Positions 3-19,998 of a DNA stretch of 20,000 bases are shown here, piece by piece. Under the pieces are notes generated by a model. It made no database searches. It saw only the letters and a list, made by a program, of their open reading frames with translations, and was not told where the DNA came from. Position 1 is the first letter of the stretch, and the number at the start of each line of letters is the position of its first letter. The stretch is taken from IMG/VR virus record IMGVR_UViG_3300024235_000284; one strand, 5' to 3'. This stretch comes from an uncultured virus (IMG/VR IMGVR_UViG_3300024235_000284) (taxonomy: Duplodnaviria > Heunggongvirae > Uroviricota > Caudoviricetes). The position numbers and the translations under genes were made by a program.

Positions 3-704
3 GCTATACGACAAGAAATACACAAAGACCTAGGCTTCACAGCAGAGGACCGCTTGGAACATGCCAGGAGACTAGGCAAACTGAGCGACTGGGCCAGCAT
101 GGGTGGAAATTATGTTGTGGCTGATTTTGTGTGTCCTACTGCGGAGACACGAGAGGCTTTTGATGCTCACTGGGTCATCTGGGTGGACAGAATACAAGAG
201 GGTAGATACGAAGACACCAACAAGTTGTTCCAGCCACCAACAGATGCAGATGTGGTGCTCAAAGATGGTTCACCGGATGAATGGTGTAATCAAGTGATGG
301 AATGTATCAACAAATCAGAGCAATGGGATAATCAAGCACCCACCGCACTTCTGATAGGTAGGTATCAGCCGTTTCATGTGGGTCATAAAACTCTTGTGGC
401 GGAGGCGGTCAGACGCACTGGTCAATGCTGCATAGCGTTGCGAGACGTTGGAGGTATGGATGATAATAATCCATATGACTTTGAAAAGGTCAAAGCAGAG
501 ATATACGCTGCATGTGCTGAATTCGGTGACAAGATCAAAGTGATCGAGATACCCAACATAATGGATGTTTTTTACGGGCGAGGTGTTGGATATAACATCG
601 AGCAGCTTGAGCTGAGCAAAGAGTTACAAGAAGTGAGTGCCACTAAGATTCGAGCTGGTGAGATTGGACAGGATGGAAAACCAACTGGAAAACGACCAGA
701 ATAA
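3..704 (+). CDS. 5'-truncated adenylylsulfate-kinase-like P-loop kinase fused to an HxGH nucleotidyl(cytidylyl)transferase domain
   Basis: The frame is open from position 3 (AIRQEIHKDLGFTAEDRLEHARR), matching the APS-kinase D..R...DLGF..EDR.E..RR motif. The C-terminal half has IGRYQPFHVGH (HxGH) and the SATKIR end motif of the CTP-transferase superfamily. The start lies upstream of the window. Confidence 0.8.
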   Translation, partial: AIRQEIHKDLGFTAEDRLEHARRLGKLSDWASMGGNYVVADFVCPTAETREAFDAHWVIWVDRIQEGRYEDTNKLFQPPTDADVVLKDGSPDEWCNQVMECINKSEQWDNQAPTALLIGRYQPFHVGHKTLVAEAVRRTGQCCIALRDVGGMDDNNPYDFEKVKAEIYAACAEFGDKIKVIEIPNIMDVFYGRGVGYNIEQLELSKELQEVSATKIRAGEIGQDGKPTGKRPE

Positions 705-1897: not shown

Positions 1898-2548
1898 ATG
1901 AAGACAAAACTAATAATCGCTGCACTTGCATGTGCATTGTCTATCAACGCTGCCCAAGCGGACGTACAAAGTTCGCTAGGAGTTAAGCATACCTCTGATT
2001 ACTATTATCGAGGTGCTCAACTGTCACAAGACGCGTTGCAACTAAACGTAGGTGTCAACACCACAATGTCCGGTTTGGATGTATCTGTTGGATACTTGAC
2101 AAACCAGGCCGCGGATGACACAAACACCGACACACTGTCGCTACAGATTGGAAAAACCGTGCTAGATAAAAGATTGAATCTAGTTGCTGGTGTTTACAAT
2201 ATGGACGCTGATGGCTCACCGGATCACACACAAGTATATATAGGCGGCAGTCTGAATGTATTGTTGAGTCCAACTGTCACGGTTTTTCGTGACACAAGTG
2301 ACGATCTGTACACATACGAGTTCGGAGTCTATCATGGCTTTGACGTCGGTGGTGCGGATTTGACTCTTGGAGCAGCAGTAGGCCGTACAGAGTTGACAAG
2401 TGTGCTAGACCGTGATTACGGATCGGTCAGTGCTCGTTTGAGCAAAACGATTGGTGCTGTGACTCCACATGTACAAGTTGCGTTGGTTGATTCTGACATC
2501 ACTTCACGTGAAACTGTTGTTTGTCTAGGAGTGGACTTCAAGTTCTAG
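1898..2548 (+). CDS. outer-membrane beta-barrel protein, TorF/Gcw_chp (TIGR02001)-like putative porin
   Basis: Sec signal ending AQA-D; SDYYYRG motif near the mature N-terminus; alternating amphipathic beta-strands; C-terminal GVDFKF (BAM beta-signal). Confidence 0.75.
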   Translation: MKTKLIIAALACALSINAAQADVQSSLGVKHTSDYYYRGAQLSQDALQLNVGVNTTMSGLDVSVGYLTNQAADDTNTDTLSLQIGKTVLDKRLNLVAGVYNMDADGSPDHTQVYIGGSLNVLLSPTVTVFRDTSDDLYTYEFGVYHGFDVGGADLTLGAAVGRTELTSVLDRDYGSVSARLSKTIGAVTPHVQVALVDSDITSRETVVCLGVDFKF

Positions 2549-2565
2549 TAGCTGGGTATTTTATT

Positions 2566-2799
2566 ATGAAAGAAACACTAGAAACATTCAAAGGTCTCAT
2601 CTGGGGCGTCACTTCGGTGCTCGTGTCAGCATTAGGCCTGCTGGTTGTTGCACAAGCCGTATTCGGTGAAGCAGCCAGTGTTAACGTTATTGGTAACCTG
2701 CAAGGGATTATCAACGGGTTTGTCGGAGAAGGAGCAAGCCTGGCAGGGGTGATCACATTACTTCTTGTGGTAGCATTGCTACAGAAGAAGAAAGAGTAA
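2566..2799 (+). CDS. small two-TM membrane protein
   Basis: ATG 2566; 77 aa with two hydrophobic helices and a basic tail KKKE. Confidence 0.75.
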   Translation: MKETLETFKGLIWGVTSVLVSALGLLVVAQAVFGEAASVNVIGNLQGIINGFVGEGASLAGVITLLLVVALLQKKKE

Positions 2800-3674: not shown

Positions 3675-3817
3675 TTTGTGGCTTCTAGCTTGTCACCAGC
3701 TTTCTTAGCAGCTTTGTATGCTTTGCTACCTTTCTTGGCACTCTTGCCTCCGCGTTTTTTCTTGGCGTTGATGTTGGCCCACAAGCCTTCAGTGTAGAAT
3801 TCTTTGAACGTTTTCAT
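3671..3817 (-). CDS. 48-aa Lys-rich putative internal head protein (not in ORF track)
   Basis: MKTFKEFYTEGLWANINAKKKRGGKSAKKGSKAYKAAKKAGDKLEATK*. ATGA overlap with the next gene; N-terminus resembles T4 IPI MKTFKEF. Confidence 0.75.
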   Translation of the reverse strand: MKTFKEFYTEGLWANINAKKKRGGKSAKKGSKAYKAAKKAGDKLEATK

Positions 3818-3834
3818 CAGTCACCAGGCCCAGG

Positions 3835-4635: not shown

Positions 4636-4640
4636 ATATT
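4612..4640 (+). promoter_or_regulatory. possible sigma70-type promoter for uvsE
   Basis: TTGCGT (4612-4617)-N17-TATATT (4635-4640), 9 nt before ATG 4650. Confidence 0.4.
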
Positions 4641-4648
4641 TATTTAGT
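4641..4648 (-). promoter_or_regulatory. late promoter variant ACTAAATA
   Basis: Minus strand ACTAAATA, 5 nt, then ATG at 4635. Confidence 0.55.
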
Positions 4649-4649
4649 C

Positions 4650-5615
4650 ATGTATAACCTATGTTGCATCAGTTTAACACTAAAAAAATCCGGTTCGAAT
4701 CATCGTGCCATGAGATTCAATCAATTTGAGAAGCATTCTAGGAGTGAATCACTTGAGACATTAGGGAGTCGATCGCTAGAAAATCTACAAACCACACTAG
4801 ACACGATGCGGTTCGCGCGGAAGAGAGGGTGGGGGTATCGTATAAGCAGCACGTTGTTTCCCTTGTTCAATCTGGATAAGGCTAATGTGTGTCTTGATGA
4901 TCTTCCAAATGCCACGCTGATTCATGATAAATTTCACGAGATACACTCTTTTATGTCTGACCAGTCACCTGAAGATTTCCGTATCAGTTTTCATCCAGAT
5001 CACTTTAACGTGCTGTGTAGTGCCAATGCTGAAGTGGTGAGGAGAACCATCAACGAGCTTGACCATCACGCCTGGTTGATGGATAACTTCGCCGGGGTGG
5101 ATAGCAGAAGCTATTGGTATCCGCTGAACATTCATATGAGTCGTAGTGCAGGTGACCCGGAAGTTATTGCTAAAGAGTTCATATCCAACTACCAGAAACT
5201 CCCGGAACGAGTCCGGGCGCGGTTGGTATTAGAAAATGAAGACAAAGGCGTATGGACCCCAGACATGTTGTTTGAATTGATTCACCTGGAAACAGGTATA
5301 CCCATAACATATGACAATCTTCATCACCGGTGTAATCCCGGGCTATGGGGCATCGAAGAAGCGTTTCGTGTGTGTTGTAGCACCTGGAAAGCTCATGGTG
5401 TTAACCCTTTGTTTCACTACAGTGAGGGAGGAGCGAACAACAATCCAAGAGCACATACAGATTTTGCCACCAGCTCTCCAGTGTTATGGCGATCAGAGTA
5501 TGACAGTTCGTACACAAGAGACATGCACGTGGATTGGGATATTGAGATTAAACAAAAAGATTACGCCATAGATCACATGGTACAAATAGAGGAAAAGTCG
5601 CTTCATGCGATATAA
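4650..5615 (+). CDS. uvsE: UV DNA damage endonuclease UvsE/UVDE
   Basis: LCCIS, YRISS.LFP, RISFHPDHFNVL, LNIH, RLVLENEDK, PITYDNLHH, PLFHYSE, RAHTD, DIEIKQKDYA. Confidence 0.92.
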   Translation: MYNLCCISLTLKKSGSNHRAMRFNQFEKHSRSESLETLGSRSLENLQTTLDTMRFARKRGWGYRISSTLFPLFNLDKANVCLDDLPNATLIHDKFHEIHSFMSDQSPEDFRISFHPDHFNVLCSANAEVVRRTINELDHHAWLMDNFAGVDSRSYWYPLNIHMSRSAGDPEVIAKEFISNYQKLPERVRARLVLENEDKGVWTPDMLFELIHLETGIPITYDNLHHRCNPGLWGIEEAFRVCCSTWKAHGVNPLFHYSEGGANNNPRAHTDFATSSPVLWRSEYDSSYTRDMHVDWDIEIKQKDYAIDHMVQIEEKSLHAI

Positions 5616-5618
5616 ATA
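5611..5618 (+). promoter_or_regulatory. T4-like late promoter TATAAATA
   Basis: Perfect consensus overlapping the uvsE stop, 6 nt before ATG 5625. Confidence 0.7.
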
Positions 5619-5624
5619 CATTAT

Positions 5625-6344: not shown

Positions 6345-6378
6345 TCAGTAGAGCATTATTGTTTTAATTACATGGTGA

Positions 6379-6386
6379 TATAAATA
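6379..6386 (+). promoter_or_regulatory. T4-like late promoter TATAAATA
   Basis: Perfect consensus 8 nt before ATG 6395. Confidence 0.65.
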
Positions 6387-6394
6387 TATATAAC

Positions 6395-8011
6395 ATGTAC
6401 AACAATACTAAACGTAACAAAAACATATCCCTAGCGAACCTATTCCTAGGTTATACCTTATCTGTAATCTTCATCATACTGCTGATGTCGAACGTTAACA
6501 GCTCTAGAGATTCGGTTGAGATTATCACAAGGGTCGTTGAGGTCAACAACACAATTGTCGAAGATAGATTAGTATATACACCATCACATGCACCATCAGT
6601 TCAATATGTTGATCATCTGGATGTTGGTATCAACAAGAGCGTGAGACATGATTGGATTGATCGAAATCCGAACCAGATTGGTATAAATACAGTTGATGTC
6701 GATAGCATTCATAGTAGAACTTGGAATGGTGGTTCTGATCCTGATATTGTTGCTCATGACATAAACACACACAAGCGTGACACAAACAACCATTCACGAC
6801 GGTCACTCACACGCAGATTACACTCACATGATGTGTTAGAGAACCACGATCCAGGTTTGTTGGATCGTAGGATACAACAGATGGAGGATGATGAGATTGG
6901 TTTGAGTTTCAATGATGGAGTTGATATTAGCAATTTAACAGTTGCGGGTAGGGGTGATGATATGGAGCTAGGTGATGTGATGAAGTTCCATGCGAGATCA
7001 AAAGCTGGTGATGTTGCAGGTGGTGGTCAATTGTTCGCATACAGTTTTCCAAGTCAGGGTGTTGGTGCAGGTGTCGGTAGCGGGTCAGTAGGTGCAACCT
7101 CCGGTGGTGGAGCCGGGATAGGTGCTGGTATCGGAGAGGCAATCACCGGTGGAGATAGTGTACCAACACTGGGTGGGGTTGGTACATACATGAACTTGGG
7201 GAATGCACCAGATGTTGGTGGTGTTGGTGGATTGGTTGCTGGTGGGGGTGCTGGTGGTGCAGCTGGGCTGTACACTGGTAAGGTTATTGAGGTTCTTGGA
7301 ATCAATCCTGGACCTGGAACCGGTGCATCTGAGGGATACAATTACGATCATCTACCACGAGATGGTGCTCTTCACATCATGATGCATGTTGATGGTAGTG
7401 GTAGCATTCTCAACACTAGAAAGCAACTGGATATAATGAAGGATACATTGCTGAAGCGCGCGTTGTTACCATATTATAACAATGACGTGGATCTGTACAA
7501 TCGTAGAGTAACTATAGTGTCAACATCTGGAGAACGTACTCTGCAGTTTTTCAAGGAAGCAGCAGAAAAAGACAATGTTTTGGCGATCGCTTTTCAAGAT
7601 GAGGCTCAACCAGCATATCATTTGCCTAACTTCAATAAACAACCGGAGGAGCACTATCTTGACGACATTAATGAGCTTAAAGCGTCACTTGACGGTTATA
7701 CCGGGTTGTACAGAGGTGTGATGTTTCAGGTTGATAGAGGCAAGACGTTTGCTAAGAGTTTCAAGGAGTTTGTGAATAATTCTTTCAAAGGTGAGGGTTA
7801 TCTCGAGAGCAGCAATTTAAAAAATTACTACAGGGACAACAACACAGACAATATAAGGAACAAGGATGGTATTGTGTTTAGTGATGAATATCATGCAAAA
7901 GATTCTGGAGACCCTACATACTACTTGAATTTGATCTTGACCGCAGCCAAAAGAGTTGGACTGGATTTAAGTGTTAATAGTGGTGGACTTACAGACGGTA
8001 AGAATATATAA
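6395..8011 (+). CDS. membrane-anchored protein with Gly-rich linker and C-terminal vWA-like domain
   Basis: N-terminal TM (LFLGYTLSVIFIILLM); H/D-rich region; Gly-rich low-complexity tract; IMMHVDGSGS is a beta-strand plus DxSxS MIDAS-like motif at 7391-7405. Confidence 0.65.
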   Translation: MYNNTKRNKNISLANLFLGYTLSVIFIILLMSNVNSSRDSVEIITRVVEVNNTIVEDRLVYTPSHAPSVQYVDHLDVGINKSVRHDWIDRNPNQIGINTVDVDSIHSRTWNGGSDPDIVAHDINTHKRDTNNHSRRSLTRRLHSHDVLENHDPGLLDRRIQQMEDDEIGLSFNDGVDISNLTVAGRGDDMELGDVMKFHARSKAGDVAGGGQLFAYSFPSQGVGAGVGSGSVGATSGGGAGIGAGIGEAITGGDSVPTLGGVGTYMNLGNAPDVGGVGGLVAGGGAGGAAGLYTGKVIEVLGINPGPGTGASEGYNYDHLPRDGALHIMMHVDGSGSILNTRKQLDIMKDTLLKRALLPYYNNDVDLYNRRVTIVSTSGERTLQFFKEAAEKDNVLAIAFQDEAQPAYHLPNFNKQPEEHYLDDINELKASLDGYTGLYRGVMFQVDRGKTFAKSFKEFVNNSFKGEGYLESSNLKNYYRDNNTDNIRNKDGIVFSDEYHAKDSGDPTYYLNLILTAAKRVGLDLSVNSGGLTDGKNI

Positions 8012-8012
8012 T
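7984..8012 (+). promoter_or_regulatory. possible sigma70-type promoter for tmRNA
   Basis: TGGACT-N17-TATAAT ending 8 nt before the mature 5' end. Confidence 0.35.
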
Positions 8013-8020
8013 ATATTAAC

Positions 8021-8420
8021 GGGCCTGTAAAGGATTCGACGTTCATTGACAGTTAACTACGGCAAGTGAGAGAGATGCCTGGCTCTCTAATAAGGCATAA
8101 AAGTCCTAAATGGCGAAGGTTATTCAACCATTGAAGATCTTCTTGATGCAGCTCGCGAAGAGTACGACAACATGGTCGACTTCGAAGCCGCGCAAGAGCT
8201 CTTCGAAATGGCAGCCTGAGTGCTGTCTCAACCGTTAAGCGACGCTTGATAGTTTAACGGTTGTCATTATCGAGCAAAACCAGATATGTTGTTGATTGAT
8301 GACTGGTCAAATCGAAATCAAATAGGGTGTTGGTAACCGAAAACAACCAACTAAACTTGTGAATGACGTGTTAACCAGAGATGTTAACGGACGCCGGTTC
8401 GACTCCGGCCAGGTCCACCA
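8021..8420 (+). ncRNA. ssrA: tmRNA (transfer-messenger RNA)
   Basis: 5' GGGCCTG...GGATTCGAC; 3' T-arm GCCGG-TTCGACT-CCGGC then CAGGTCC-A-CCA. The acceptor stem has the G3:U alanine identity pair. PK1 is AGAGAG/CTCTCT plus ATGCCT/AGGCAT (8069-8098). PK2-like AACCGTTAAGC/GTTTAACGGTT with GCTTGATA/TATCGAGC. Internal tag ORF ends AA-stop. Confidence 0.95.
8112..8219 (+). other. tmRNA tag reading frame (35 codons + stop)
   Basis: Resume context TAAAT|GGC after PK1; encodes GEGYSTIEDLLDAAREEYDNMVDFEAAQELFEMAA*. Confidence 0.75.
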
Positions 8421-8445
8421 ATTTTAATATCATAACAATTCAGAC

Positions 8446-8453
8446 GATAAATA
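8446..8453 (+). promoter_or_regulatory. late promoter variant GATAAATA
   Basis: 5 nt before ATG 8459. Confidence 0.6.
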
Positions 8454-8458
8454 ATTTA

Positions 8459-8800
8459 ATGAAACTACACATATCAATACTACTGATCTTGTTTGGCAGC
8501 TGCACGATCCAACCAACAACTACAAAAACTGAAGCTGTTGACTATAGCAAGCATGTTGACATCATCATGCAGGATCTTGATAACAAGCAAAGAGAGCTTG
8601 TGATTCTCCGAGAGATAAAACTAGCACAGGACAACAATGATACAGATGCATATGAGTTTTTCATGCAAGAGTATTTTGATGTGCCTAGATTGAAACTCAC
8701 TGCTGACCAGAAACAACACCCACAATACAGAGAGTGGCTGACTGATGAACAGATAAAGTCTGCAGCTTACATGTCTGTAGAATTTGATTACGTCAAGTGA
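8459..8800 (+). CDS. putative lipoprotein
   Basis: Re-started at ATG 8459: MKLHISILLILFGSC, a type II signal with lipobox-like FGS-C; 113 aa. Confidence 0.7.
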   Translation: MKLHISILLILFGSCTIQPTTTKTEAVDYSKHVDIIMQDLDNKQRELVILREIKLAQDNNDTDAYEFFMQEYFDVPRLKLTADQKQHPQYREWLTDEQIKSAAYMSVEFDYVK

Positions 8801-8830
8801 TACGCTCCGGTTGTGTTTACCAGTTGCTTT

Positions 8831-8838
8831 AATAAATA
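8831..8838 (+). promoter_or_regulatory. late promoter variant AATAAATA
   Basis: 5 nt before ATG 8844. Confidence 0.6.
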
Positions 8839-8843
8839 CAGGT

Positions 8844-10913
8844 ATGAAGCATTTGTTATTGTTAATACCGTTAATTGTCGGAGCAGTCGCCACTACATGC
8901 AAAGGGACCACTAGAATATATCATAAAACCGGTGGGTCGGTTGAAGGTACAATCCTTGAGGCCAATGAAACACACATGTTGTTTCAACGTGCAGAGGATC
9001 TGCAACAGTACAGGTTACTGATCGATTCATTGGCAGAGAACTCACAGCAACTGGTGGACTTGTATCATAGAACCGAACGTTACAGCACAATACCAAAAGT
9101 CAAAACTCCGGTTGAGACAAAAACGCTGGAGAAATACACTAGATATATAGACGAGTTGATATTTCAGGATTTACGAAGCAAACGAATATCACCAACAGAT
9201 AAGGTGGATCAGTACACTTTTGTTAGAAGATTGTACCTGACCACAATAGGGCGTATACCAACATACACAGAACTAATGGAGTATGTTGATGATCGTGACA
9301 GTGACAGAAAAGACAAATTAATTGTGCGTTTACTCAATTCAGAAGGATATGTCAATCATCAAATGAACTGGTGGATGGACATGTTGAGGATACAAGATCG
9401 TCCTCAAAATATCAACATCAATGCAGGTGGTATCTACAGAGAGTGGATGAGACAAGCATTGAGAGACAACAAACCGTACAATAAAATTGTACAGGAATTG
9501 ATTGCTAGCAACGGATCACTCTACGGTGGGTCTCCAGAAGTCAGTTATTACTTACGTGATCGTGGCATGCAGGAAGACAATTTATCTCACACGGTGCGTG
9601 TGTTCCTGGGCACTCGACTTCAATGCGCCATGTGTCATGATCATCCGTTCGATAGATGGACGCAAAAAGAATTTTACGAGTTGACGGCGTTCACCAGTGG
9701 GATCGGACAGGTGAGAATTAAAGACTATCAAAAAGTTTACGGGCAGTTGAACAAAACCATTAGAGATAATCCAGATGACAATACCGGTATATATAACAAC
9801 TGGCGCAATCAGGTGAGGGATTCTCTGGCGATCGGATTGGAGAACAACGGTACCGGCATGATCAAACTACCAAGGGATTTTGCGGCGGACAACGCTAATC
9901 CATTTGACATAGTTTATGCAAAAGCCATATTCACACCAAAACCTGTGTTTGACCCGACTCTACCAAATTCACAAAGCAGAGTGGTGTTCGCTGACTGGTT
10001 GACTAGTGTGGATAATCCTAGATTCACCACCATGATCGCTAACAGGTTATGGAAACACGTGTTTGGCGCGGCCATGATCGAGCCAATAGACACCATGATG
10101 GATGACACTCTGCCAAGCAACACCGCGCTGATGAAATACCTAGAAAGATTGATGGTGAGTGTCGATTATGATATCAAGGAGTATTTGCGCATCATACTGA
10201 ACACAAAATTGTTTGAGCGTGAGGCGTTGAAGCAGGATTTCAAGAGCCTGGAAGAGTACAGCTTCGCAGGACCGATGGTCAAGCGTATGACCGGTGAGCA
10301 AATATGGGATTCCCTTGTGACATTAGTGTATAATGACATTGATTCACCGGAACGTATCTATCTACACAATCAACAAGACTACACTGATATTTATGAGAGA
10401 TACAGGGAGATGACTGGTGAGGAGATATATGCAGATTTTAAAATGTTAGTTGAGAAGAATCCTGGTAACAGAAATTTTCTCGAGGTGATAAGAAAGGAAG
10501 CATCAGGTTACACCAAAGTCAAACCCATATCTGATCGTGGATTGGTGCGCAGTAGCTATTTACAATCACCAACACCTGGTGGTCATTTGATACGTCAGTT
10601 TGGTGGTAGTGATCGTTTACAGATTGACAACAGTAACTCTGAACCTAACACCACTCAAGTGCTCAACATGCTCAATGGATTTGTTGAGAAAAACATCATT
10701 GGTAACAAGAACGCTGATTTCATCACATTTATGAAAACCCATAAATCCAAATCCAAACAGTTAGAGACAATATTTCTATCCATACTAGGAAGAAAACCCG
10801 ACAGTAGAGAGTTGAGTGATTTGAAAGGGTTTCTAAGTGAAGATGATCCGAATAGTTACAAGCATGTGGCATGGATTCTACTGAACACACATGAATTTAT
10901 GTTTGTACAATAA
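8844..10913 (+). CDS. secreted DUF1549 (PSCyt2) + DUF1553 (PSD1) protein with N-terminal SHD1-like domain
   Basis: Signal peptide MKHLLLLIPLIVGAVA; FVRRLYL..IGRIPT; W.D.LR; NKPY..IV.ELI; FLGTRLQCAMCHDHPFDRWTQ.EFY; WLTS.DNPRF....ANRLWK..FG; KRMTGEQIWDS; FGGSDR; Q.L.MLNG; ILGRKP; W.LLNT.EF. Confidence 0.9.
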   Translation: MKHLLLLIPLIVGAVATTCKGTTRIYHKTGGSVEGTILEANETHMLFQRAEDLQQYRLLIDSLAENSQQLVDLYHRTERYSTIPKVKTPVETKTLEKYTRYIDELIFQDLRSKRISPTDKVDQYTFVRRLYLTTIGRIPTYTELMEYVDDRDSDRKDKLIVRLLNSEGYVNHQMNWWMDMLRIQDRPQNININAGGIYREWMRQALRDNKPYNKIVQELIASNGSLYGGSPEVSYYLRDRGMQEDNLSHTVRVFLGTRLQCAMCHDHPFDRWTQKEFYELTAFTSGIGQVRIKDYQKVYGQLNKTIRDNPDDNTGIYNNWRNQVRDSLAIGLENNGTGMIKLPRDFAADNANPFDIVYAKAIFTPKPVFDPTLPNSQSRVVFADWLTSVDNPRFTTMIANRLWKHVFGAAMIEPIDTMMDDTLPSNTALMKYLERLMVSVDYDIKEYLRIILNTKLFEREALKQDFKSLEEYSFAGPMVKRMTGEQIWDSLVTLVYNDIDSPERIYLHNQQDYTDIYERYREMTGEEIYADFKMLVEKNPGNRNFLEVIRKEASGYTKVKPISDRGLVRSSYLQSPTPGGHLIRQFGGSDRLQIDNSNSEPNTTQVLNMLNGFVEKNIIGNKNADFITFMKTHKSKSKQLETIFLSILGRKPDSRELSDLKGFLSEDDPNSYKHVAWILLNTHEFMFVQ

Positions 10914-10941
10914 TTCATAATTGGAAAAGGTCATATTTTTT

Positions 10942-10949
10942 TATAAATA
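10942..10949 (+). promoter_or_regulatory. T4-like late promoter TATAAATA
   Basis: Perfect consensus, 5 nt before ATG 10955. Confidence 0.75.
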
Positions 10950-10954
10950 TATAC

Positions 10955-12226
10955 ATGATGAACGATATAAACAGAAGACAATTTATTAATGGAATAGCCA
11001 AAAGCTGTCTTGGTGTGAGTGCCATACTGACAGCTGATGACCTATTAAGTGTGGAGTTATCCAGACAAGTGGCCACCGCGAGAAGTGTGATCTTTCTGTA
11101 CATGGGTGGTGGAATGACACATATTGACACTCTAGACCCGAAACCAGACAATACTGATGTGATGGGTGAAACTTCGGCTATCAAAACCTCAGCAGATGGT
11201 ATACAGCTTGGTCACTGGTTGCCTAAAACCGCTCAACAGATGCACAATGCCACTTTGATACGTTCATTGAACACCAATCAAGGTGCGCATGCTCAAGCTA
11301 ATTATTTATTACACACGAGTTACCAACGACGTGGTACCATAGTGCATCCAACCATGGGAGCTTGGGTGAGTCGATTCACAGAAAAATTAAACAAAACATT
11401 ACCATCAAACGTGAAAATCAACGGAGGTAGTGACGTGTTGGGAGCTGGTTATTTTGAGAAGAAACATGGTCCGTTACCACTTGGTAATCCTAGTGCTGGT
11501 ATTCAAAATGTAGTTAAGTCTGGTTATCTTGATGAGAGCATGTACAACAAACGTTTAGATATCTCGAGTAAATTCAACAAAAATTTTCTAGGGACTTATC
11601 CACAAAAACAAGTACGAGCATACACTGATCTGTATGATGATGCGATCAAGTTAATGAAGAGTGATGATTTGAAGGCTTTTGATCTGTCTAAAGAGTCTCA
11701 ACAGATACGTGACGAGTATGGTGACAACAATTTCGGTCAGGGTTGTTTGTTGGCAAGAAGACTAGTGGAAACCGGTGTTAGATTTGTGGAGGTGCAACTA
11801 GGTGGATGGGACATGCACAATCAAGTGTTCAACTCTCTAGAGACAAAAGCGGCTGAGCTTGACTCAGGACTGTCTTCGTTGCTTGTGGATTTGAACAGAC
11901 GTGGCATGTTGAATCAAACGCTTGTTGTGCTGGCCAGTGAGTTTGGTAGAACTCCGGAGGTCAAGCCTGGTAGAATAGGGAGAGATCATCACCCATCTGC
12001 GTTCAGTGCGTTGTTGGCTGGTGGAGGAATCAAACAAGGTTACGTGCATGGTATGTCAGACGATCGCGCTCATTATGTTGAGGAGAATGGTGTTGGTATG
12101 GAGGAGCTCAATGCAACTATAGCGCACACCATGGGACTAAGGATAAACAAAACTATCTTCTCACCAGGAGGCAGACCATTTCAAGTGTCACATGGAGCTC
12201 AGCCCATCGTAGATGTCCTCTCTTGA
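10955..12226 (+). CDS. DUF1501 domain protein with twin-arginine (Tat) signal
   Basis: NRRQFI Tat motif; VIFLYMGGGMTHIDTLDPKP; FGQGCLLARRLVE.GVRFVEV; GWDMH; TLVVLASEFGRTP; GRDHHP; LLAGGGIK.G. Confidence 0.92.
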   Translation: MMNDINRRQFINGIAKSCLGVSAILTADDLLSVELSRQVATARSVIFLYMGGGMTHIDTLDPKPDNTDVMGETSAIKTSADGIQLGHWLPKTAQQMHNATLIRSLNTNQGAHAQANYLLHTSYQRRGTIVHPTMGAWVSRFTEKLNKTLPSNVKINGGSDVLGAGYFEKKHGPLPLGNPSAGIQNVVKSGYLDESMYNKRLDISSKFNKNFLGTYPQKQVRAYTDLYDDAIKLMKSDDLKAFDLSKESQQIRDEYGDNNFGQGCLLARRLVETGVRFVEVQLGGWDMHNQVFNSLETKAAELDSGLSSLLVDLNRRGMLNQTLVVLASEFGRTPEVKPGRIGRDHHPSAFSALLAGGGIKQGYVHGMSDDRAHYVEENGVGMEELNATIAHTMGLRINKTIFSPGGRPFQVSHGAQPIVDVLS

Positions 12227-12410
12227 TCAAGATTCGCTCACGGTACAAAAAATCATGTTAACTGAGATGTGGCAAGATCATGAGTACTTACAAGTTGGTG
12301 AATTTATCAAGAGCGTTGGGTGGACAGCTAGCGAGACTGTAGATTTTGCTGCGTATTTCTGCAAATATCTAGGAACTAAACAACTAGAAATATTGCATAA
12401 ATTCATTTGA
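12213..12410 (+). CDS. hypothetical protein
   Basis: 65-aa ORF overlapping the DUF1501 3' end and filling the gap before the next promoter. Confidence 0.6.
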   Translation: MSSLDQDSLTVQKIMLTEMWQDHEYLQVGEFIKSVGWTASETVDFAAYFCKYLGTKQLEILHKFI

Positions 12411-12413
12411 AAC

Positions 12414-12421
12414 AATAAATA
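12414..12421 (+). promoter_or_regulatory. late promoter variant AATAAATA
   Basis: 5 nt before ATG 12427. Confidence 0.6.
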
Positions 12422-12426
12422 ATAAC

Positions 12427-13029
12427 ATGAAGGATCGTGATCAACAACTACTATGGGAAGCGTACGTTACTGAAAAGAGTGATGTAGCTGAACGTACACC
12501 ACCAAAAGACAAGTTAAACAAGGGTGATTTTTTACCCAAAAAGGTCCGGGATGAAATTAATGATGAGGAGGATGTTGCTGAGGAGGGTACAGATGGTAAT
12601 ACTGATGATTTAAATCCTGCGGAGAAGGCCAAGCTCGCGGCTGATGCTGCTAAGAAAGGTAAAGGACCTCTCAAGGAGGACGATGAAGTGCAGGAAGAAG
12701 GTGAGATGGGCGTCGCGAATGCCGCATCTGAAGGCATGGGATTGAGCCCAGATGCGGGCATGACAAACATGGAGTTTTCCGCGGCCGGGAGAGAGAATCC
12801 AGAGCAGATGGTATTTGATGCTGTGCTCAGTTGGATGCGTGCAGACACTGAGGGTCTAATGACCCCAGAGGACTATGAAGGTTACAGCATGAACACAGCA
12901 TTTGATGATGCTAAGGATTTTATCAGACAATCGCTCCAGGATATATCATTTAGTGAAATTAAAGCACATCTCAACGACACTGTGGATATAGGATACGATT
13001 CAAGTGTGACTACAGAAGAAGAATATTAA
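12427..13029 (+). CDS. acidic hypothetical protein, putative head core/internal protein
   Basis: 200 aa, very E/D-rich, N-terminal DQQLLWEAY, repeated [VL]xE sites. Confidence 0.75.
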   Translation: MKDRDQQLLWEAYVTEKSDVAERTPPKDKLNKGDFLPKKVRDEINDEEDVAEEGTDGNTDDLNPAEKAKLAADAAKKGKGPLKEDDEVQEEGEMGVANAASEGMGLSPDAGMTNMEFSAAGRENPEQMVFDAVLSWMRADTEGLMTPEDYEGYSMNTAFDDAKDFIRQSLQDISFSEIKAHLNDTVDIGYDSSVTTEEEY

Positions 13030-13032
13030 CAG

Positions 13033-13506
13033 GTGACATTACGTGATTTATTGAATCATGTATTAGATCGCGGATACTTCAACAAATCCGTCAATTATAT
13101 ACGTTGTGTTGATCCGATCGTGTCAGAAAGATCAGTAGAGCGAGTGTTCGAACAATATACTAATGCTGCAAGGGAGCTGATAGAATTACCTGGAGATGAC
13201 ACTTACAAGGACCATGTGATTTCAATCAAGGGTATAGTGAGTGACAAGACAGAAACGAGTGATGTCACCCTGTTTGATGGTACTGAACATCATTCCATGG
13301 ATTTCATTGACTGGAACGATTTGATCGATCTAGAAATCGAGGATACAACTAGTGTCAATTTGAGTGAGATGTTGGCACATGTGTTGTATGAAATAACCTG
13401 GTGGGGGTTCACAAGAGAGACTGTACGTCAGCAAGGAGAGGATTTGTTGAGGCAGTCTAATAGTGATAATATTGTGGAGTTCTCATTAAGTGCATTGGGT
13501 AGTTGA
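13033..13506 (+). CDS. hypothetical protein (LAHVLYEITWWGF motif)
   Basis: 157-aa ORF with GTG start 3 nt after the upstream stop. Confidence 0.7.
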   Translation: MTLRDLLNHVLDRGYFNKSVNYIRCVDPIVSERSVERVFEQYTNAARELIELPGDDTYKDHVISIKGIVSDKTETSDVTLFDGTEHHSMDFIDWNDLIDLEIEDTTSVNLSEMLAHVLYEITWWGFTRETVRQQGEDLLRQSNSDNIVEFSLSALGS

Positions 13507-13531
13507 TTTCCCGGGTGTTGTATACTATAAT
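13503..13531 (+). promoter_or_regulatory. sigma70-type (early) promoter
   Basis: TTGATT (13503-13508)-N17-TATAAT (13526-13531); same TTGATTTC -35 context as the promoter at 1852. Confidence 0.75.
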
Positions 13532-13536
13532 TAGGC

Positions 13537-14253
13537 ATGGAGTATGACCCGAAATTAAGAAAACGCACAAGACAAACCAAACCTTACAACAGCAACACGT
13601 TTCTGAACAGTCGAGAGGCTCGAGGCATCCGCGTGCAATGTGAGATGCTTGAACCAGGTGTTCGGTTGTCTCGACTTGGTATTGAACACATGATAACATT
13701 TTTCGGTAGTGCGAGGTCAGGGCCTGGTAGTGAAGATTATAAAAATGCTTATAACATTGCACATAAGCTTGGGGAAGGGTTATCAGGACCGGATGTTGGT
13801 ATCAACAGTGGTGGAGGACCAGGTATCATGGAGGCGGTCAACAGAGGTGCGAAGGATAGCGGTGCTAAGAGTATCGGGATGGGGATAAGCTTGCCATTTG
13901 AACAACGTAACAATGAGTATATATCAGAAGATTTAGAGTTTCAGTTCCATTATTTTTTTACCAGAAAATACTGGTGTGTCTATTTGAGCAAAGCGTTTGT
14001 TGTGATGCCCGGGGGAGTTGGAACCATGGATGAACTGTTTGAAATATTGACATTGATACAAACACGCAAGATACCTGGTAACAAACCAATCGTGTTGTTT
14101 AATTCTAGTTTTTGGAATGAGACTATCAATTTTAACCGCATGGTTGAACATGGTACTATCTCTGCTGCAGATTTAAACTTATTCAAGATCACTGATAATG
14201 TGGATGAAGCCGTTTCACATGTGATTGACAACATCGACTTAGTGCGCGTATAA
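13537..14253 (+). CDS. LOG-family (TIGR00730-like) nucleotide monophosphate phosphoribohydrolase
   Basis: ITFFGSAR, GGGPGIMEA.NRGA, LPFEQ..N.Y, F.YFFTRK, PGGVGTMDELFE. Confidence 0.9.
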   Translation: MEYDPKLRKRTRQTKPYNSNTFLNSREARGIRVQCEMLEPGVRLSRLGIEHMITFFGSARSGPGSEDYKNAYNIAHKLGEGLSGPDVGINSGGGPGIMEAVNRGAKDSGAKSIGMGISLPFEQRNNEYISEDLEFQFHYFFTRKYWCVYLSKAFVVMPGGVGTMDELFEILTLIQTRKIPGNKPIVLFNSSFWNETINFNRMVEHGTISAADLNLFKITDNVDEAVSHVIDNIDLVRV

Positions 14254-14254
14254 T

Positions 14255-14452
14255 ATGGATCAAAAAATGACGATAGGTGTTCTCATGCTCGGGAGTGTCT
14301 TGATTGTTGGTGCTGTCTTAATGTATAATCGAATAGTGAGACTTGAAGAATTGGTTAGAGTGCAAGATGAAACAATACAATTACAAAACCGAGCCATATT
14401 GCTAAAAAATCTAGAAACACAGTTGCTGCATCAAAGGTATCATGTTCAATGA
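14255..14452 (+). CDS. small single-TM coiled-coil protein
   Basis: Hydrophobic N-terminal helix then heptads; ATGA-coupled to the next ORF. Confidence 0.65.
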   Translation: MDQKMTIGVLMLGSVLIVGAVLMYNRIVRLEELVRVQDETIQLQNRAILLKNLETQLLHQRYHVQ

Positions 14453-14751
14453 AATATTTAGATCCTAGACCTGATATATATAAAATTGTATTCCAAGCTG
14501 GTCGATGGACAAGCAAGAGCGAAAGGTATTACACCGCGTTCACTTCACAAGAAGCCATGATGGATTTTTATCACACATTTGTTGTGGGACATGTACATGC
14601 CAAAACAGTCAAAGTTTACAGGATTGAACGTTATGATAGATTTAGTGACACATGGGATAACCATATACAATCATGTTTAGATGACTTACCCAAACCAGTA
14701 CTGACTAATGTGAAGGTTAAAGATAATCGCATAATATTTCATGAAATCTAA
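14449..14751 (+). CDS. hypothetical protein
   Basis: 100-aa ORF in a tightly packed operon. Confidence 0.65.
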   Translation: MKYLDPRPDIYKIVFQAGRWTSKSERYYTAFTSQEAMMDFYHTFVVGHVHAKTVKVYRIERYDRFSDTWDNHIQSCLDDLPKPVLTNVKVKDNRIIFHEI

Positions 14752-14968
14752 CCAAGACATACACACATTAACTGCTATACAATCAGACATGTTGAGAGAA
14801 TTACACAACAATCAAGAGAAGTTAATACACATAATAGACAAAAAAATAGATGAACAGACTTTTCACGCTATGAAGTACAAGGAGCGTGAGTGTTATGAAG
14901 CTTTATTGGAGTTGAGAGAGTTACGCAACACATTACAAGTGTTTTTACAAGTGACTAGACAATCTTAA
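14741..14968 (+). CDS. hypothetical helical protein
   Basis: 75-aa ORF overlapping both neighbours. Confidence 0.6.
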   Translation: MKSNQDIHTLTAIQSDMLRELHNNQEKLIHIIDKKIDEQTFHAMKYKERECYEALLELRELRNTLQVFLQVTRQS

Positions 14969-17528
14969 CTTTGCTCCCAGATGTTTTGATCTCAACATCT
15001 TGAGCTGGTACCCTCTCACTCTCATCACACTCCTTGCCACGATCTCTCACAATGTCATTTGATGCCACTAGATGCATGGCGGCGTTTTTGAACAAGTGAC
15101 TATGACCATAATCAATCACATGGTCATCGTTGCTATCCGAAATTAATGTTACAGTCGCCCCACCCCAGCTTGGATGTGCAGTACCATGGGGGCTCACCGC
15201 ATGACTACCGCCATTGATGTTACATTTGAAGGTTAACCCGGACAACAACTTGCTGAATATACGAGCAACCTCTGTCTCGTGTATCTCCACTGGTGCTGTT
15301 ATGTGGTGGCAGCTCAACTCTCCCTCAACATGCAAACCTCCACCAATCACGACATTCTGACTAACACCCAGGTTGCTGTCTACCAGCACTTGCCCACGCT
15401 CTCGCTGCCGGATGCTTATTATGTCACTCACTATGTTCAATCGCTTACCACCATCAATATTAACTTCATTCTTACTACCTATACTCACCTGATCACCACC
15501 AACAGTCACCTGTGAACCACCAATTTCAACACGCCCCGCAGTTTTTATACTCACACCTCCAGCACCTACATGCACATTCCACCGGTTTGCTATATTCAAT
15601 GTGTAGCTACCACCGGGCATATCATCTACATGAACAGGCTCGATAACAGGTGAGGGTGTTTGATTGACAAACACACCATGTTTGTGCACTCGGACATCGC
15701 TACGAAACATTTTACCTGTTGGGTCGGTTCTGATGCTAGGAAAATCATTCATCACCAGACCTATATTTTCAACTTTATGTTTGGCAATTGTTATGATCTC
15801 AGACCCACCCATACCCAACTCACTTTCTATTGGTGCCAGTTTCTCTGCAACACTCTTCACAAGTTGCTTGAATGTCTCTGTATTCTTCTGCGGAGTTTCA
15901 GTCCACACACCATCCATACTGCTGGTGCTCAGTCCAGTACCATTACAAGCTGGGCACCTCTCACCAAATATGAAGCCCGGGCCTTGTAATACCCATAACG
16001 GATCGATAGCTACCGCCTCATGGAGTTGTGCACTGGTGTACAATTTGGGTGACGCTCCCGTGGGATCGGTCATCATGTACTGTACCGGATTGGGTGGAGC
16101 TGGAGATGGTGGAAACTGTTGTCTGTATGGATTGAAATAACCTTGCAATCCAGGTGCACCCATCGTCGCTTTTGTGGCACCATTGCCCCCGGCTTTGGAA
16201 GTGTCTGTTTTGAGTTGTATTGATGGTAATAAAAATTGATTGAACGCACGTGTGTAATTTGTTTTGGGCAAACCGGTGAGGCTATCAACATCAACACACA
16301 CCGGGCATGGAGCAGCAACCCCGGTTTTGGTTTGTGACAATTTCCCATTCTGGCCAGGTATACCATTGACACGCTGTATATCAAACAGCGCTTTCACTTG
16401 TGCAATCTCATGCATGGTTTCTCTCCAGTTAAGATGATGGTTAAAGTTCTGATAACCTACCTTATGATAATAATCACCCCGGACAATGTGATCTAGATCA
16501 CGTTCAGTGTACCAATTACGGAAACCGTTGACAGTGTCATAATCATCCTCCTGTACCAATCTCTGATTGTTTACGGCTGCGAATTGTATGTTGGTTTGAT
16601 TGTTGAACTCCAGGAATGATCCACTATAATGTGTCATCTTGAGAATCTCTCTGTTGTCAGTGTTTATGAATTCAAGTGAACCACCTTTTTGATTGATGAC
16701 ATATTTGTTCCTGTACGTCTCAGTGTTCGTATCAAACACACGCTCCTCATCCTTGCTTATGTTTTCATACGTGCCCGGGTAATCCATACCATGCTCCTCT
16801 TGGCTCTCGTATATACCTCTCCAATCCTCACTACCATGCATGGCAGCGAACACAACCGGGTGCAGAGGATCCCCATCTTGAAAAAACACCCACACATGTG
16901 CACCAACATTAGGTATACTGAAGCTACCTTTGGCGCAATTACTGTACGTGTTGGGTCTATAATTCCACGCGAATTTGTTGGGTCTGTTCACGCCGTTCAA
17001 TCGCTCACCAACTGCTAGATCTTCAAATGGCCAGCTGCCTTCATCATCTGACGAGCTGTCTTCACTCATTGAATCAGGGTCATGCGTGTTTGTGAATGCG
17101 TCATGCACCCACAACTCATGCGACTCATACACCTTGCCAGGTTTTTCTCCTATGTGCTCGTCATTCAGTTTGTATTTTTTCTCTATGTCTGTCGTGTGTG
17201 TATCTGGCTTGAGAGTCTCATGTCGATTGCTATCTGACACAGTACCCAACTCATCATGTGCATTGTAACGTCCACTACCAACAGCTCCCACACTGGGCAT
17301 GGCATTCTCCGCCCATGGTAGTATGGTTTTTAGCTCTGGTAATATCTTGTTCAGATCACTCTTGAGATTTATACCAGGGAAGGTGAAACTTTTGTCACTT
17401 ATCTCGTTATACCAGTTCTGGTAAACATTTGCTTGTATGTGTGGTACATACACTTTGACTCGACCGCGGAAATCTGGGTCATTGTTCTGTACCACGATGC
17501 CCAGGTACATTCCTGTGTATTGTTTCAT
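14955..17528 (-). CDS. baseplate hub/central spike protein (T4 gp5 / GpV / VgrG-like OB-fold + beta-helix)
   Basis: YLGIVVQNNDP..RGRVKVYVP, LPWA, IPNVGAHVWVFFQDGDP.HPV (gp5 OB-fold); HYSGSFLEF; beta-helix-like C-terminus; HSH near the tip. Confidence 0.85.
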   Translation of the reverse strand: MKQYTGMYLGIVVQNNDPDFRGRVKVYVPHIQANVYQNWYNEISDKSFTFPGINLKSDLNKILPELKTILPWAENAMPSVGAVGSGRYNAHDELGTVSDSNRHETLKPDTHTTDIEKKYKLNDEHIGEKPGKVYESHELWVHDAFTNTHDPDSMSEDSSSDDEGSWPFEDLAVGERLNGVNRPNKFAWNYRPNTYSNCAKGSFSIPNVGAHVWVFFQDGDPLHPVVFAAMHGSEDWRGIYESQEEHGMDYPGTYENISKDEERVFDTNTETYRNKYVINQKGGSLEFINTDNREILKMTHYSGSFLEFNNQTNIQFAAVNNQRLVQEDDYDTVNGFRNWYTERDLDHIVRGDYYHKVGYQNFNHHLNWRETMHEIAQVKALFDIQRVNGIPGQNGKLSQTKTGVAAPCPVCVDVDSLTGLPKTNYTRAFNQFLLPSIQLKTDTSKAGGNGATKATMGAPGLQGYFNPYRQQFPPSPAPPNPVQYMMTDPTGASPKLYTSAQLHEAVAIDPLWVLQGPGFIFGERCPACNGTGLSTSSMDGVWTETPQKNTETFKQLVKSVAEKLAPIESELGMGGSEIITIAKHKVENIGLVMNDFPSIRTDPTGKMFRSDVRVHKHGVFVNQTPSPVIEPVHVDDMPGGSYTLNIANRWNVHVGAGGVSIKTAGRVEIGGSQVTVGGDQVSIGSKNEVNIDGGKRLNIVSDIISIRQRERGQVLVDSNLGVSQNVVIGGGLHVEGELSCHHITAPVEIHETEVARIFSKLLSGLTFKCNINGGSHAVSPHGTAHPSWGGATVTLISDSNDDHVIDYGHSHLFKNAAMHLVASNDIVRDRGKECDESERVPAQDVEIKTSGSKVKIV

Positions 17529-18879: not shown

Positions 18880-19998
18880 CTATTTGCTCAATTGTTCCAC
18901 CTTGCGTGTCAACTCGTCAATTTGCGCTTGTTGTGACTTGGTCACTTCAATGAGTAACGCGGTGAGTTTTTCGTACTTGACCGCCTTGTATCCGGAGTCT
19001 CTAGTGGTGACAATTTCCGGGAGAACAGACTCGATCTCCTGTGCTAGTACTCCGATATCATGACCACTGAAACACACTTCATCATTTTCAATCCAGTCAA
19101 ACTCATATCCATTTATTTTGGACAATTTGTCAATTGGATCGGATATTGGTGTGAGATTCTCTTTGAGTCGCTTGTCAGAAGACGCGAATGCCACAATGTC
19201 TCCGGTGGCATTGATTGTACCGGTGGTGGTGGAGGCGGCTATTCCAATTCCTAGGGAGCGGAACTGAACTCTGTTGTCGGTGTCTAGGTCCAGTGTGGTT
19301 TTGGTCGAAGTTGTGTCTTCGGAGCCTGTGCCAATGCCGGTGACATGTCCATTGGCGTCAACCGTGATTGATTTTACAAATGTACGGGCTGTAGCTGTAA
19401 CGGTCGGGTTTGTGGCAGCTCCTGTCGAATCATGATTGATCGTGATCGCGTTTTTTGCATTAGTGATCGTTATATCAGTACCTGCTGTGAGTGTTGATGC
19501 CTCGGGTCCATCGGATCCACCTATCAACAATGCCCCGTCGGTGGTCATCACTTTTGTTAGTACTTTATCAGTACCACTGGCTTGTGTCACACAAACAGAT
19601 TTGTCCGCTAGGCTGCTCACACCAGTGCCTCCATTTGACACTGCTAAATCAGTTCCTAATGACAAGCTGGTGGCGCTGATACTTTTCGCGGTCAAGGCTC
19701 CAGTTTCTCCGGCAACACTGAACATCACTGCTGGTGTGGTGGCGGAGTTTTTCATCGTGAAGTCCGTGCCTGATATTAGGTTGACTCCCTCACTGGTTCC
19801 GTCAATGACCAAACCACCGGCACCGCTGAGTGTCAACGCTCCAGAACTGGTTGTGAAATTGCTAGCTGCGTCTGAATCCAATGATATGCCAGTGGCATCA
19901 ATCGTGACACCACCAGTGGTGTCAACATCCAAACTACCAGCGTTCATGTCAATTGCGGCTCCGGTGGTGGTAATGTCGATCTCTTGACCAGTGCCGTT
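18880..19998 (-). CDS. 5'-truncated tail fibre protein with C-terminal intramolecular chaperone (peptidase S74) domain
   Basis: The frame is open to the window edge; T/G/S/D-rich beta repeats; SSDKRLKEN ... IGVLAQEIESVLPEIV ... KAVKYEKLTALLIE followed by a coiled coil. Confidence 0.9.
   Translation of the reverse strand, partial: NGTGQEIDITTTGAAIDMNAGSLDVDTTGGVTIDATGISLDSDAASNFTTSSGALTLSGAGGLVIDGTSEGVNLISGTDFTMKNSATTPAVMFSVAGETGALTAKSISATSLSLGTDLAVSNGGTGVSSLADKSVCVTQASGTDKVLTKVMTTDGALLIGGSDGPEASTLTAGTDITITNAKNAITINHDSTGAATNPTVTATARTFVKSITVDANGHVTGIGTGSEDTTSTKTTLDLDTDNRVQFRSLGIGIAASTTTGTINATGDIVAFASSDKRLKENLTPISDPIDKLSKINGYEFDWIENDEVCFSGHDIGVLAQEIESVLPEIVTTRDSGYKAVKYEKLTALLIEVTKSQQAQIDELTRKVEQLSK

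Follow-up and report, generated by a model that had tools for sequence, protein, structure and literature searches.

We analysed a stretch of 20,000 nucleotides from an uncultured virus (IMG/VR record IMGVR_UViG_3300024235_000284), referred to below as the window. The subject of this study is a pair of adjacent, full-length genes on its plus strand. The upstream gene (8844..10913) codes for a 689-residue PSCyt2/PSD1 (DUF1549/DUF1553) protein, which we call the partner, and the downstream gene (10955..12226) codes for a 423-residue DUF1501 protein; the gap between them is 41 nucleotides. This two-gene module is already known from bacteria of the Planctomycetes-Verrucomicrobia-Chlamydiae (PVC) group. 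In phages it forms a clade of its own, and in the window's lineage the genes have phage-type boxes in front of them.

In Planctomycetes, Verrucomicrobia and Lentisphaerae, DUF1501 forms a conserved module with PSCyt1/PSCyt2/PSD1 proteins. The sections of Kamneva 2012 (PMC3542564) that deal with this module propose a function in membrane targeting and electron transport, and have flagged it since 2012 as a target for functional work. The passage on the module in He 2017 (PMC5615132) states that nothing is known about its function. Few orphan families of Planctomycetes and Verrucomicrobia have expanded as much as DUF1501 and PSCyt2/PSD1: the relevant part of Wecker 2009 gives 41 copies for R. 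baltica, and we counted 3 to 72 DUF1501 matches per bacterial genome. An earlier note on the window, made from the sequence alone, had called the pair a highly paralogous, functionally uncharacterised hallmark of Planctomycetes/Verrucomicrobia. The note had also known of no description of the pair as an auxiliary system of phages. Our literature search, which left supplementary tables aside, returned no publication that describes it in phages or viruses.

Searches against Pfam confirmed the proposed domain assignments. The partner matches PSCyt2/DUF1549 over residues 102-285 (E 5.7e-44, 151 bits, cut-off 29.8) and PSD1/DUF1553 over residues 379-663 (E 4.5e-28, 98.7 bits). The second protein matches DUF1501 over profile positions 1-389 of 390 (E 3.4e-107, 359.4 bits, cut-off 27). 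Neither protein matches any PHROG or NCBIfam model. A CAMCH (CxxCH) motif lies within LGTRLQCAMCHDHPFDRWTQ at 9624..9638 (+), exactly where the earlier note had placed it, and corresponds to residues 261-265 of the partner; Pfam finds no cytochrome c family besides PSCyt2 in this protein. The DUF1501 protein contains all of the motifs named in the earlier note, namely NRRQFI, which is an RRxF signature of the twin-arginine translocation (Tat) type, GWDMH and GRDHH.

Signal peptides of both proteins were judged by eye. That of the partner is consistent with the predicted general secretory (Sec) signal and ends in a conserved cysteine, followed by a conserved small domain of about 50 residues in all 11 viral copies displayed. 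The idea that this domain is SHD1-like was not borne out, because Pfam detected no SHD1 (PF03983) either in the whole protein or in residues 1-110 at E values up to 5. SHD1 does occur in 22% and 38% of the members of the nearest bacterial Atlas clusters.

Each gene is preceded at a distance of exactly 5 nucleotides by a (T/A)ATAAATA box, as first noticed by the earlier note. The consensus of T4 late promoters, read by gp55 at -10, is TATAAATA. The box of the partner, AATAAATA, occupies 8831..8838 (+), is followed by CAGGT and the ATG at 8844, and agrees with this consensus at 7 of 8 positions. Position 8831, previously given as the start of the feature, is therefore where the box begins, while the reading frame begins at 8844. 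The box of the DUF1501 gene occupies 10942..10949 (+), is followed by TATAC and the ATG at 10955, and agrees at all 8 positions. The arrangement ATAAATA-N5-ATG is found seven times on the plus strand of the window, against 0.09 expected occurrences, and none of 200 shuffles reached seven; the sites include 704-718, 2866-2880, 8447-8461, 8832-8846, 10943-10957 and 12415-12429. Ten of the 24 listed gene starts in the window have a box 1-12 nucleotides upstream.

Phage origin of the window and class of its promoter boxes

Pfam and PHROG assign two genes on the minus strand to phage structural proteins: a gp5-type hub (14955..17528), which has an OB domain, and a tail fibre (18880..19998), which has an S74 chaperone domain. 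The hub is 49-51% identical to the hub of G001, an IMG/VR relative of 222,461 bp (CheckV 100%) whose UvdE is 78% identical to that of the window. G001 encodes a Gp23-family capsid protein (E 1.6e-89) and a sheath. A PHROG scan of its 212 open reading frames (ORFs) of at least 110 residues also returned a morphogenesis set (prohead protease, gp4-like head closure protein, TerL, two tube proteins, gp25- and gp6-like baseplate parts) and a replication set (family B polymerase, UvsX, gp32, gp41, primase, clamp loader, gp46/47). A gp55-like late sigma factor is present as well (E 2.3e-31). Since this hub relative carries T4-type genes, the window is, judged by gene content, part of an uncultured T4-like marine jumbo phage of roughly 200 kb.

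A module so typical of PVC bacteria could indicate that the window is a piece of bacterial chromosome, or a chimeric assembly of phage and bacterial DNA. It would also fit this suspicion that no cultured phage in INPHARED matches the window DNA, the DUF1501 protein or the hub. We consider such an origin scarcely credible. The G+C content is about 43% and even over the pair and its flanks, a phage-type box lies inside the region, and the relatives L113 and G001 share the neighbourhood together with hub genes. Two metagenome contigs from two samples (L109 and L110, 110.6 and 99.6 kb) are 100% identical to positions 955-20000, and the exact partner protein is found on eight contigs, the longest of 193,724 bp. 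Finally, contigs from four further seawater runs bridge the junctions to the phage genes. The window is neither a chimera nor a bacterial chromosome, and the phage origin claimed in the earlier note stands.

Individual contigs illustrate this continuity. From library X2, record 13 covers 5589-8090, record 14 covers 8391-11735 with 0 differences, record 15 covers 11800-14457 and record 16 covers 14507-19828; from library X4, record 22 covers 11795-15309 and thus runs into the hub gene. Among the listed contig pieces from further runs, none bridges 8091-8390, an interval inside a transfer-messenger RNA (tmRNA) gene. X2 and X4 are metatranscriptome libraries containing this stretch, a presence that is no proof of transcription. 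Contig depth in X2 is uneven (7.6 to 350, with the peak over the tmRNA) and that in DNA runs is flat (3.6-9), values that can neither rank genes nor prove transcription.

The box in front of DUF1501 is conserved among close relatives. Nine of ten relatives with 79-86% identity contain ATAAATA-N5-ATG at this place (the exception is L127), amid bases that vary from one relative to another. In G001 the spacing is N8. The box is missing from all 14 loci of the type of lineage C (a second phage lineage, described below), and the total is 10 of 28 loci. Before the partner, a box is found in the window and in one of 14 other loci (L112, at N7); in L111 and L117 the partner follows directly behind a kinase gene. 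In G001 a box lies within 30 nucleotides upstream of 33 of the 212 ORFs. The tube-like/sheath/tube and gp25/gp6 strings begin with it there, and it also stands before three genes that lie upstream of the hub. Not one of the 11 genes annotated for replication and transcription (polymerase, UvsX, gp32, gp41, primase, clamp loader, gp46, gp47, two helicases and gp55) is preceded by it.

By the T4 rule, this distribution supports the assignment of the box as a late-class promoter. The exact consensus before DUF1501, the gp55-like gene of G001 and the position of the box at the head of structural strings resemble T4, whereas the distance of just 5 nucleotides between box and ATG in the window does not. 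Late timing itself is a prediction, and other observations speak against it: in G001 the box also precedes the small subunit of ribonucleotide reductase (RNR) and a kinase, whereas the genes for capsid, sheath, tube, terminase, protease, gp4 and gp6 have none within 30 nucleotides.

Further points concern translation and promoters. With T4-like spacing, a box 5 nucleotides before the ATG would put the transcript start at or next to the start codon, so that the message would be leaderless. In G001, TATAAT stands 6-7 nucleotides before the ATG of early genes (gp41, gp32, primase), and ribosome sites of the GGAG type precede those for capsid, sheath and tube. A promoter-like motif of lineage C, AGTGTA..ATG, was not enriched (11 occurrences, against 21 in shuffles).

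Distribution, ancestry and selection

The pair is widespread among viral contigs. In a word-indexed search of proteins, more than 120 clusters had 72-91% identity to the window DUF1501, all from metagenomes and none informatively named. The longest contig exceeds 100 kb in 16 of these clusters, and in none does it exceed 240,092 bp. Scanning IMG/VR for DUF1501 gave 15 loci, whereas an exact 41-mer taken from the window had no match there. A scan with the partner alignment gave 94 stretches, from which 76 loci were kept, and in 69 of these 76 the DUF1501 gene follows directly downstream of the partner within the 3-kb flank. Sorted by identity to the window partner, tier 1 (55-65%) comprises 21 loci, 19 of them with DUF1501 downstream; the corresponding numbers are 33 of 37 in tier 2 (37-42%) and 17 of 18 in tier 3 (31-34%). 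Six of the seven loci without a downstream DUF1501 stop too early, and the seventh is G001, where the two genes stand 7.5 kb apart.

A second complete genome, G002 (204,906 bp, CheckV 100%), also has the pair. It has neither Gp23 nor a sheath. A PHROG scan of 77 of its ORFs of at least 230 residues identified, among others, TerL, a central tail fibre of the J type, minor tail proteins, RIIA/RIIB, UvsX, PhoH, DnaB, primase, ligase, RNR and a polymerase of the DnaE type that is split over three genes. The gene string of an o538-like gene (o538 is described below), partner, variable gene, DUF1501, RNR and split DnaE recurs, whole or in part, in 10 of the first 15 IMG/VR loci (L001, L003-L005, L008-L010 and L013-L014 in full; L006-L007 in part). 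The gene contents thus indicate that at least two unrelated jumbo-phage lineages carry the same pair.

Some features of these loci are recorded here for completeness. In L001 and L004, which belong to lineage C, a variable gene of 192-593 residues (phrog_7595; DUF5754/DUF5824 in L004) separates partner and DUF1501. The DUF1501 genes of L011/L012 (51% identical) and L015 (42% identical) have no partner gene within the fetched flanks. G002 (L099:162-16388) contains a single ORF of 5,408 residues, besides ORFs of 3,417 and 2,342 residues.

Cellular relatives are more distant. The best 80 cellular loci among the matches listed from the GTDB species set are 42-51% identical to the window DUF1501 and come mostly from Verrucomicrobiales, with a few from Planctomycetota, Lentisphaerota and Omnitrophota. 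In 70 of these 80, a partner match lies upstream in the same order and on the same strand as in the window. Among 401 evenly drawn Verrucomicrobiota genomes, no match was better than E 1e-138. A search of 50% representatives left the interval between 52% and 69% identity unfilled; the best full-length match had 50%, and just fragments were found at 70-77%.

A DUF1501 tree of 78 rows (IQ-TREE, quick mode), built without the duplicates L012 and L014, roughly half the cellular loci and 105 of the 120 metagenome proteins, places the window, 12 IMG/VR rows and 15 metagenome rows in one clade. This clade has a support of 99 in the Shimodaira-Hasegawa-like approximate likelihood ratio test (SH-aLRT) and includes no cellular row. 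L011 is sister to it (97), and L015 stands apart beside a Verrucomicrobiales row (99); the latter seems to have been acquired separately, or to be a misfiled contig of cellular origin. A partner tree of 40 rows (FastTree) is congruent, with all 11 viral rows in one clade. In a larger partner tree of 65 rows, tiers 1 and 2 are sister clades (100), and tier 3 lies apart, next to a Verrucomicrobiota group (96). From this separation it follows, for cellular rows that were chosen for likeness to the window protein, that the pair entered viral contigs at least twice. On the strength of these trees, the pair in the window belongs to an old viral clade and is no recent capture. The earlier suggestion that a lytic phage had captured the pair is thus right about its being phage-borne; the notion of a capture by one phage gives way to an old and widespread clade.

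The donor of the window's clade was most likely a PVC bacterium of the Verrucomicrobiota. Several points weigh against a firmer statement on ancestry. The cellular sample was picked by likeness to the window protein and comprises the best 80 matches listed, so closer relatives may exist. The sister groups of the viral clade have a support of at most 88 and mix rows from Verrucomicrobiota, Omnitrophota and Lentisphaerota. The window tmRNA, used as a host marker, matched none of the 401 Verrucomicrobiota genomes, a null result that is uninformative.

Both genes are intact and under purifying selection in phages. Between L004 and L010, the sole pair with dS below 1, the ratio of nonsynonymous to synonymous substitution rates (dN/dS, Nei-Gojobori, NG86) is 0.055 for DUF1501 and 0.054 for the partner. 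In more distant viral pairs it is at most 0.14, with dS saturated. As a point on the other side, every comparison that includes the window itself is saturated in dS. All 83 partner proteins examined (the window, 13 viral and 69 cellular) have the CxxCH motif, within a block LGT..CA[MQ]CH[DN]HPFD.WTQ that they likewise share; viral copies read CAMCH and cellular copies CAQCH. Among 38 viral and cellular DUF1501 sequences, R7, R8, H56, T59, H112, Y117, H131, D286, H288, E329, R343 and H345 are invariant, and the window has the whole set.

These data also bear on the idea that the pair is passenger DNA, that is, a recently acquired host fragment without a role for the phage. The accessory region is indeed plastic, its gene order is shuffled among relatives, and in L125 the gene for UvdE lies between the two genes of the pair. 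Such shuffling fits a promoter of its own for each gene. The low dN/dS in both genes, the retention of the pair over two phage lineages and in the large majority of the IMG/VR loci, the conserved box before DUF1501 and the lack of a cellular relative above 51% identity among the matches listed make a mere passenger highly improbable. We regard it as very likely that the pair is of phage origin in the window, belongs to an old viral clade, is under selection and has its own promoter boxes.

Compared with the PVC module, the phage pair has the same two Pfam architectures, gene order and strand, the invariant CxxCH block and the Tat motif. Unlike the bacterial copies, the viral ones are phage-borne, form their own clade, are at most 51% identical to the cellular copies listed and occur as single copies. 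They lack PSCyt1, carbohydrate-binding (CBM) and laminin modules and have a short N-terminal domain only, read CAMCH instead of CAQCH, and come with phage boxes and with the virus-only companions o538, lipo113, OMP216 and o92. A single, stripped-down copy that strong selection maintains in dozens of ocean contigs and at least two unrelated lineages suggests that the pair works as a self-contained unit and that it pays off within one infection cycle. The phage pair may serve as a minimal version for expression and assay, as a host marker for abundant uncultured marine T4-like phages, and as a new candidate class of periplasm-acting auxiliary genes.

Predicted activity of the pair

An AlphaFold2 model of the DUF1501 protein, built from the 38-sequence alignment, has a predicted local distance difference test score (pLDDT) of 82.8 and a predicted template modelling score (pTM) of 0.83. 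The best Foldseek matches in the PDB are sulfamidase (E 3.7e-7, TM 0.40), steroid sulfatase and LtaS. According to this model, DUF1501 has the alpha/beta core of the alkaline phosphatase superfamily and is about equally distant from several subfamilies, which agrees with the alkaline-phosphatase/sulfatase-like fold named in the earlier note. Sequence-profile searches of the PDB with either protein gave nothing significant, with weak sulfatase segments at E 0.02-2, and the Atlas model of the partner (pTM 0.83) matched its own family only. The best match in BFVD is UniProt A0A6J5M742, a 'DUF1501 domain-containing protein [uncultured Caudovirales phage]' (15% identity in the structural alignment, E 9e-8), followed by giant-virus phosphoesterases and sulfatases. 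A DUF1501 protein has thus already been filed under a phage metagenome record, but it is a distant paralogue of the window protein, and we found no description of it in print.

The protein differs from characterised superfamily enzymes in several ways. Its identity to NPP/ENPP6, PafA, S1 sulfatases and LtaS is 9-16%, and in the profile alignment TLVVLASEFGR falls on the sulfatase strand whose end is a metal-ligand aspartate, so that Glu329 takes the place of this Asp. A formylglycine (S1) sulfatase was considered and rejected, since the Cys/Ser-x-Pro-x-Arg (CxPxR) motif is missing and Pfam returned no PF00884 Sulfatase match at E up to 0.01. A phosphodiesterase match was not found in Pfam either.

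The explanation we prefer starts from an ancient entry of the pair into phages, from a PVC bacterium that was most likely a member of the Verrucomicrobiota. At least two unrelated lineages of jumbo phages would then have inherited the pair and exchanged it, and purifying selection would have retained it, with a T4-type late-promoter box ahead of each ATG in the window's lineage. DUF1501 would fold in the cytoplasm, leave it by the host Tat pathway and act in the periplasm as a metal-dependent enzyme of the alkaline phosphatase superfamily on a phosphate or sulfate ester. The partner would be exported by Sec, might be lipid-anchored, and could serve as a CxxCH-bearing accessory subunit for substrate handling or redox chemistry. 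More periplasmic processing of organic esters in the infected cell would provide phosphorus for phage production, and the pair may cooperate with porin-like and membrane proteins that travel with it. That the two proteins form a periplasmic enzyme with DUF1501 as the catalytic subunit seems to us about evenly balanced, and the explanation as a whole falls slightly short of that. A role of the pair in nutrient scavenging we hold to be possible yet doubtful.

The activity proposed here has to be weighed against the missing CxPxR motif, and against an assignment to the superfamily that is made by the fold. In addition, the passages on the module in Kamneva 2012 (PMC3542564) and He 2017 (PMC5615132) report enzyme activity, metal, haem or complex formation for no member of either family. 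Further evidence of this kind comes from the genes around the nine nearest cellular pairs, which provide a partly redox-like context: a PSCyt1/cytochrome c gene lies directly downstream in three of the nine, and a pyrroloquinoline quinone (PQQ)-type beta-propeller is found around three of the nine. Other neighbours are one CBM6 protein, one sulfatase and one TonB receptor, with two-component systems in three of the nine.

This context would suit a redox module. As a genuine haem c protein, the partner would exchange electrons with DUF1501 or with other host cytochromes, for periplasmic oxidation or reduction in energy metabolism or detoxification. The invariance of CxxCH in the partners and the His-rich invariant set of DUF1501, which could bind a redox metal, would be explained as well, and electron transport is what the module sections of Kamneva 2012 (PMC3542564) propose. 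The window partner nevertheless has no Pfam cytochrome c domain, and the phage copies travel without PSCyt1 or PQQ genes. We know of no member of the alkaline phosphatase superfamily that is an oxidoreductase. On balance, a redox module appears improbable.

The case for cooperation with other proteins comes from four genes whose homologues were found in viral loci only and not in the flanks of cellular pairs. OMP216 (1898..2548, +) has a signal peptide and a C-terminal Phe, and matches the TorF-family/Gcw_chp putative porins weakly (E 5e-5, below the cut-off). In relatives it is always followed by o92 (2521..2799, +), a small hydrophobic membrane protein with two helices, and the two travel with the DUF1501 pair in both phage lineages. 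A small putative lipoprotein, lipo113 (8459..8800, +), stands behind its own box and is located after DUF1501 in relatives; it has no similarity to the variable protein between the pair genes of lineage C. The fourth gene, o538 (6395..8011, +), encodes a protein with an N-terminal membrane anchor and a Gly/Ala-rich stretch. Seven viral loci have it: in six it lies directly upstream of the partner, whereas in L006 it is found some 2 kb beyond DUF1501. Its C-terminal region of about 220 residues is very conserved and starts with HVDGSGS. To our eye, the DxSxS pattern resembles the metal-ion-dependent adhesion site (MIDAS) of von Willebrand factor A (vWA) domains; Pfam and Atlas gave nothing usable for this protein. 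What ties these four genes to the pair is linkage only.

These companions would also be compatible with envelope remodelling, in which the pair acts late with the porin-like, lipoprotein and membrane proteins to alter an envelope glycan or lipid, for superinfection exclusion, for hiding receptors on debris or as a help in lysing a PVC-type envelope. LtaS/EptA-type enzymes are membrane-anchored, in contrast to DUF1501 as a soluble Tat substrate, and they rank below NPP/PafA and sulfatases. The high copy numbers in bacterial genomes fit a diversity of substrates better than a single envelope step, and no lysis genes are adjacent to the pair. We therefore judge envelope remodelling to be unlikely.

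Scavenging of esters, as in the preferred explanation, has known parallels. T4-like cyanophages carry the phosphate-acquisition genes pstS and phoA, and E. coli pairs the porin PhoE with PhoA. The window resembles these systems in belonging to a T4-like marine phage, in encoding an exported superfamily enzyme with a porin-like gene nearby, and in the presence of PhoH in G001 and G002. It differs in that another enzyme family is involved, and in that only late-type boxes and no PhoB-type regulation are evident. One could go further and regard the pair as the core of an envelope-spanning uptake-and-processing kit, composed of OMP216 as a TorF-like porin of the outer membrane, o92 and lipo113 as small proteins of the inner membrane, the membrane-anchored o538, a haem-motif adaptor and DUF1501 as an esterase exported by Tat. 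The kit would be installed late, from leaderless late transcripts, by jumbo phages that infect marine PVC bacteria, and would mine organic phosphate or sulfate esters for virions. This extension is speculative, and we think it rather improbable, more so than a redox module. If true, viruses would have their own equivalent of the PhoE/PhoA arm of the Pho regulon, and a 20-year-old orphan family would gain its first function.

Other genes in the window

The UV-damage endonuclease UvdE (4650..5615, +) is 77-78% identical in relatives (L125, L115, L112) and mobile within the accessory region. The window opens with an ORF at 3..704 (+) that resembles adenosine 5'-phosphosulfate (APS) kinase and cytidylyltransferase (phrog_10255, 'kinase'). 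G001 contains the same kinase together with six galactose-3-O-sulfotransferase-like genes, a combination that hints at phage-driven sulfation of a glycan; it also carries glycosyltransferases and epimerases. A LOG/TIGR00730-family protein, similar to cytokinin riboside 5'-monophosphate phosphoribohydrolase, is encoded at 13537..14253 (+) and occurs in G001 and L112/L115 as well.

The tmRNA gene (8021..8420, +) was identified by Rfam (RF00023, 91.8 bits, full length, CCA end) and missed by ARAGORN. Its tag frame starts at 8112 and is unusually long, with 35 codons ending in ...FEMAA-stop. Contigs over the tmRNA are by far the deepest in two RNA libraries (350 and 242) and not in DNA runs (about 3). 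In X2, X4 and X5, some contigs match the window up to 8424 (the tmRNA end), 8785 (the lipo113 end) or 12667, and then diverge into unrelated sequence; the last of these points falls inside an acidic ORF (12427-13029). The gene-cassette borders around the pair appear to be places where co-occurring strains differ.

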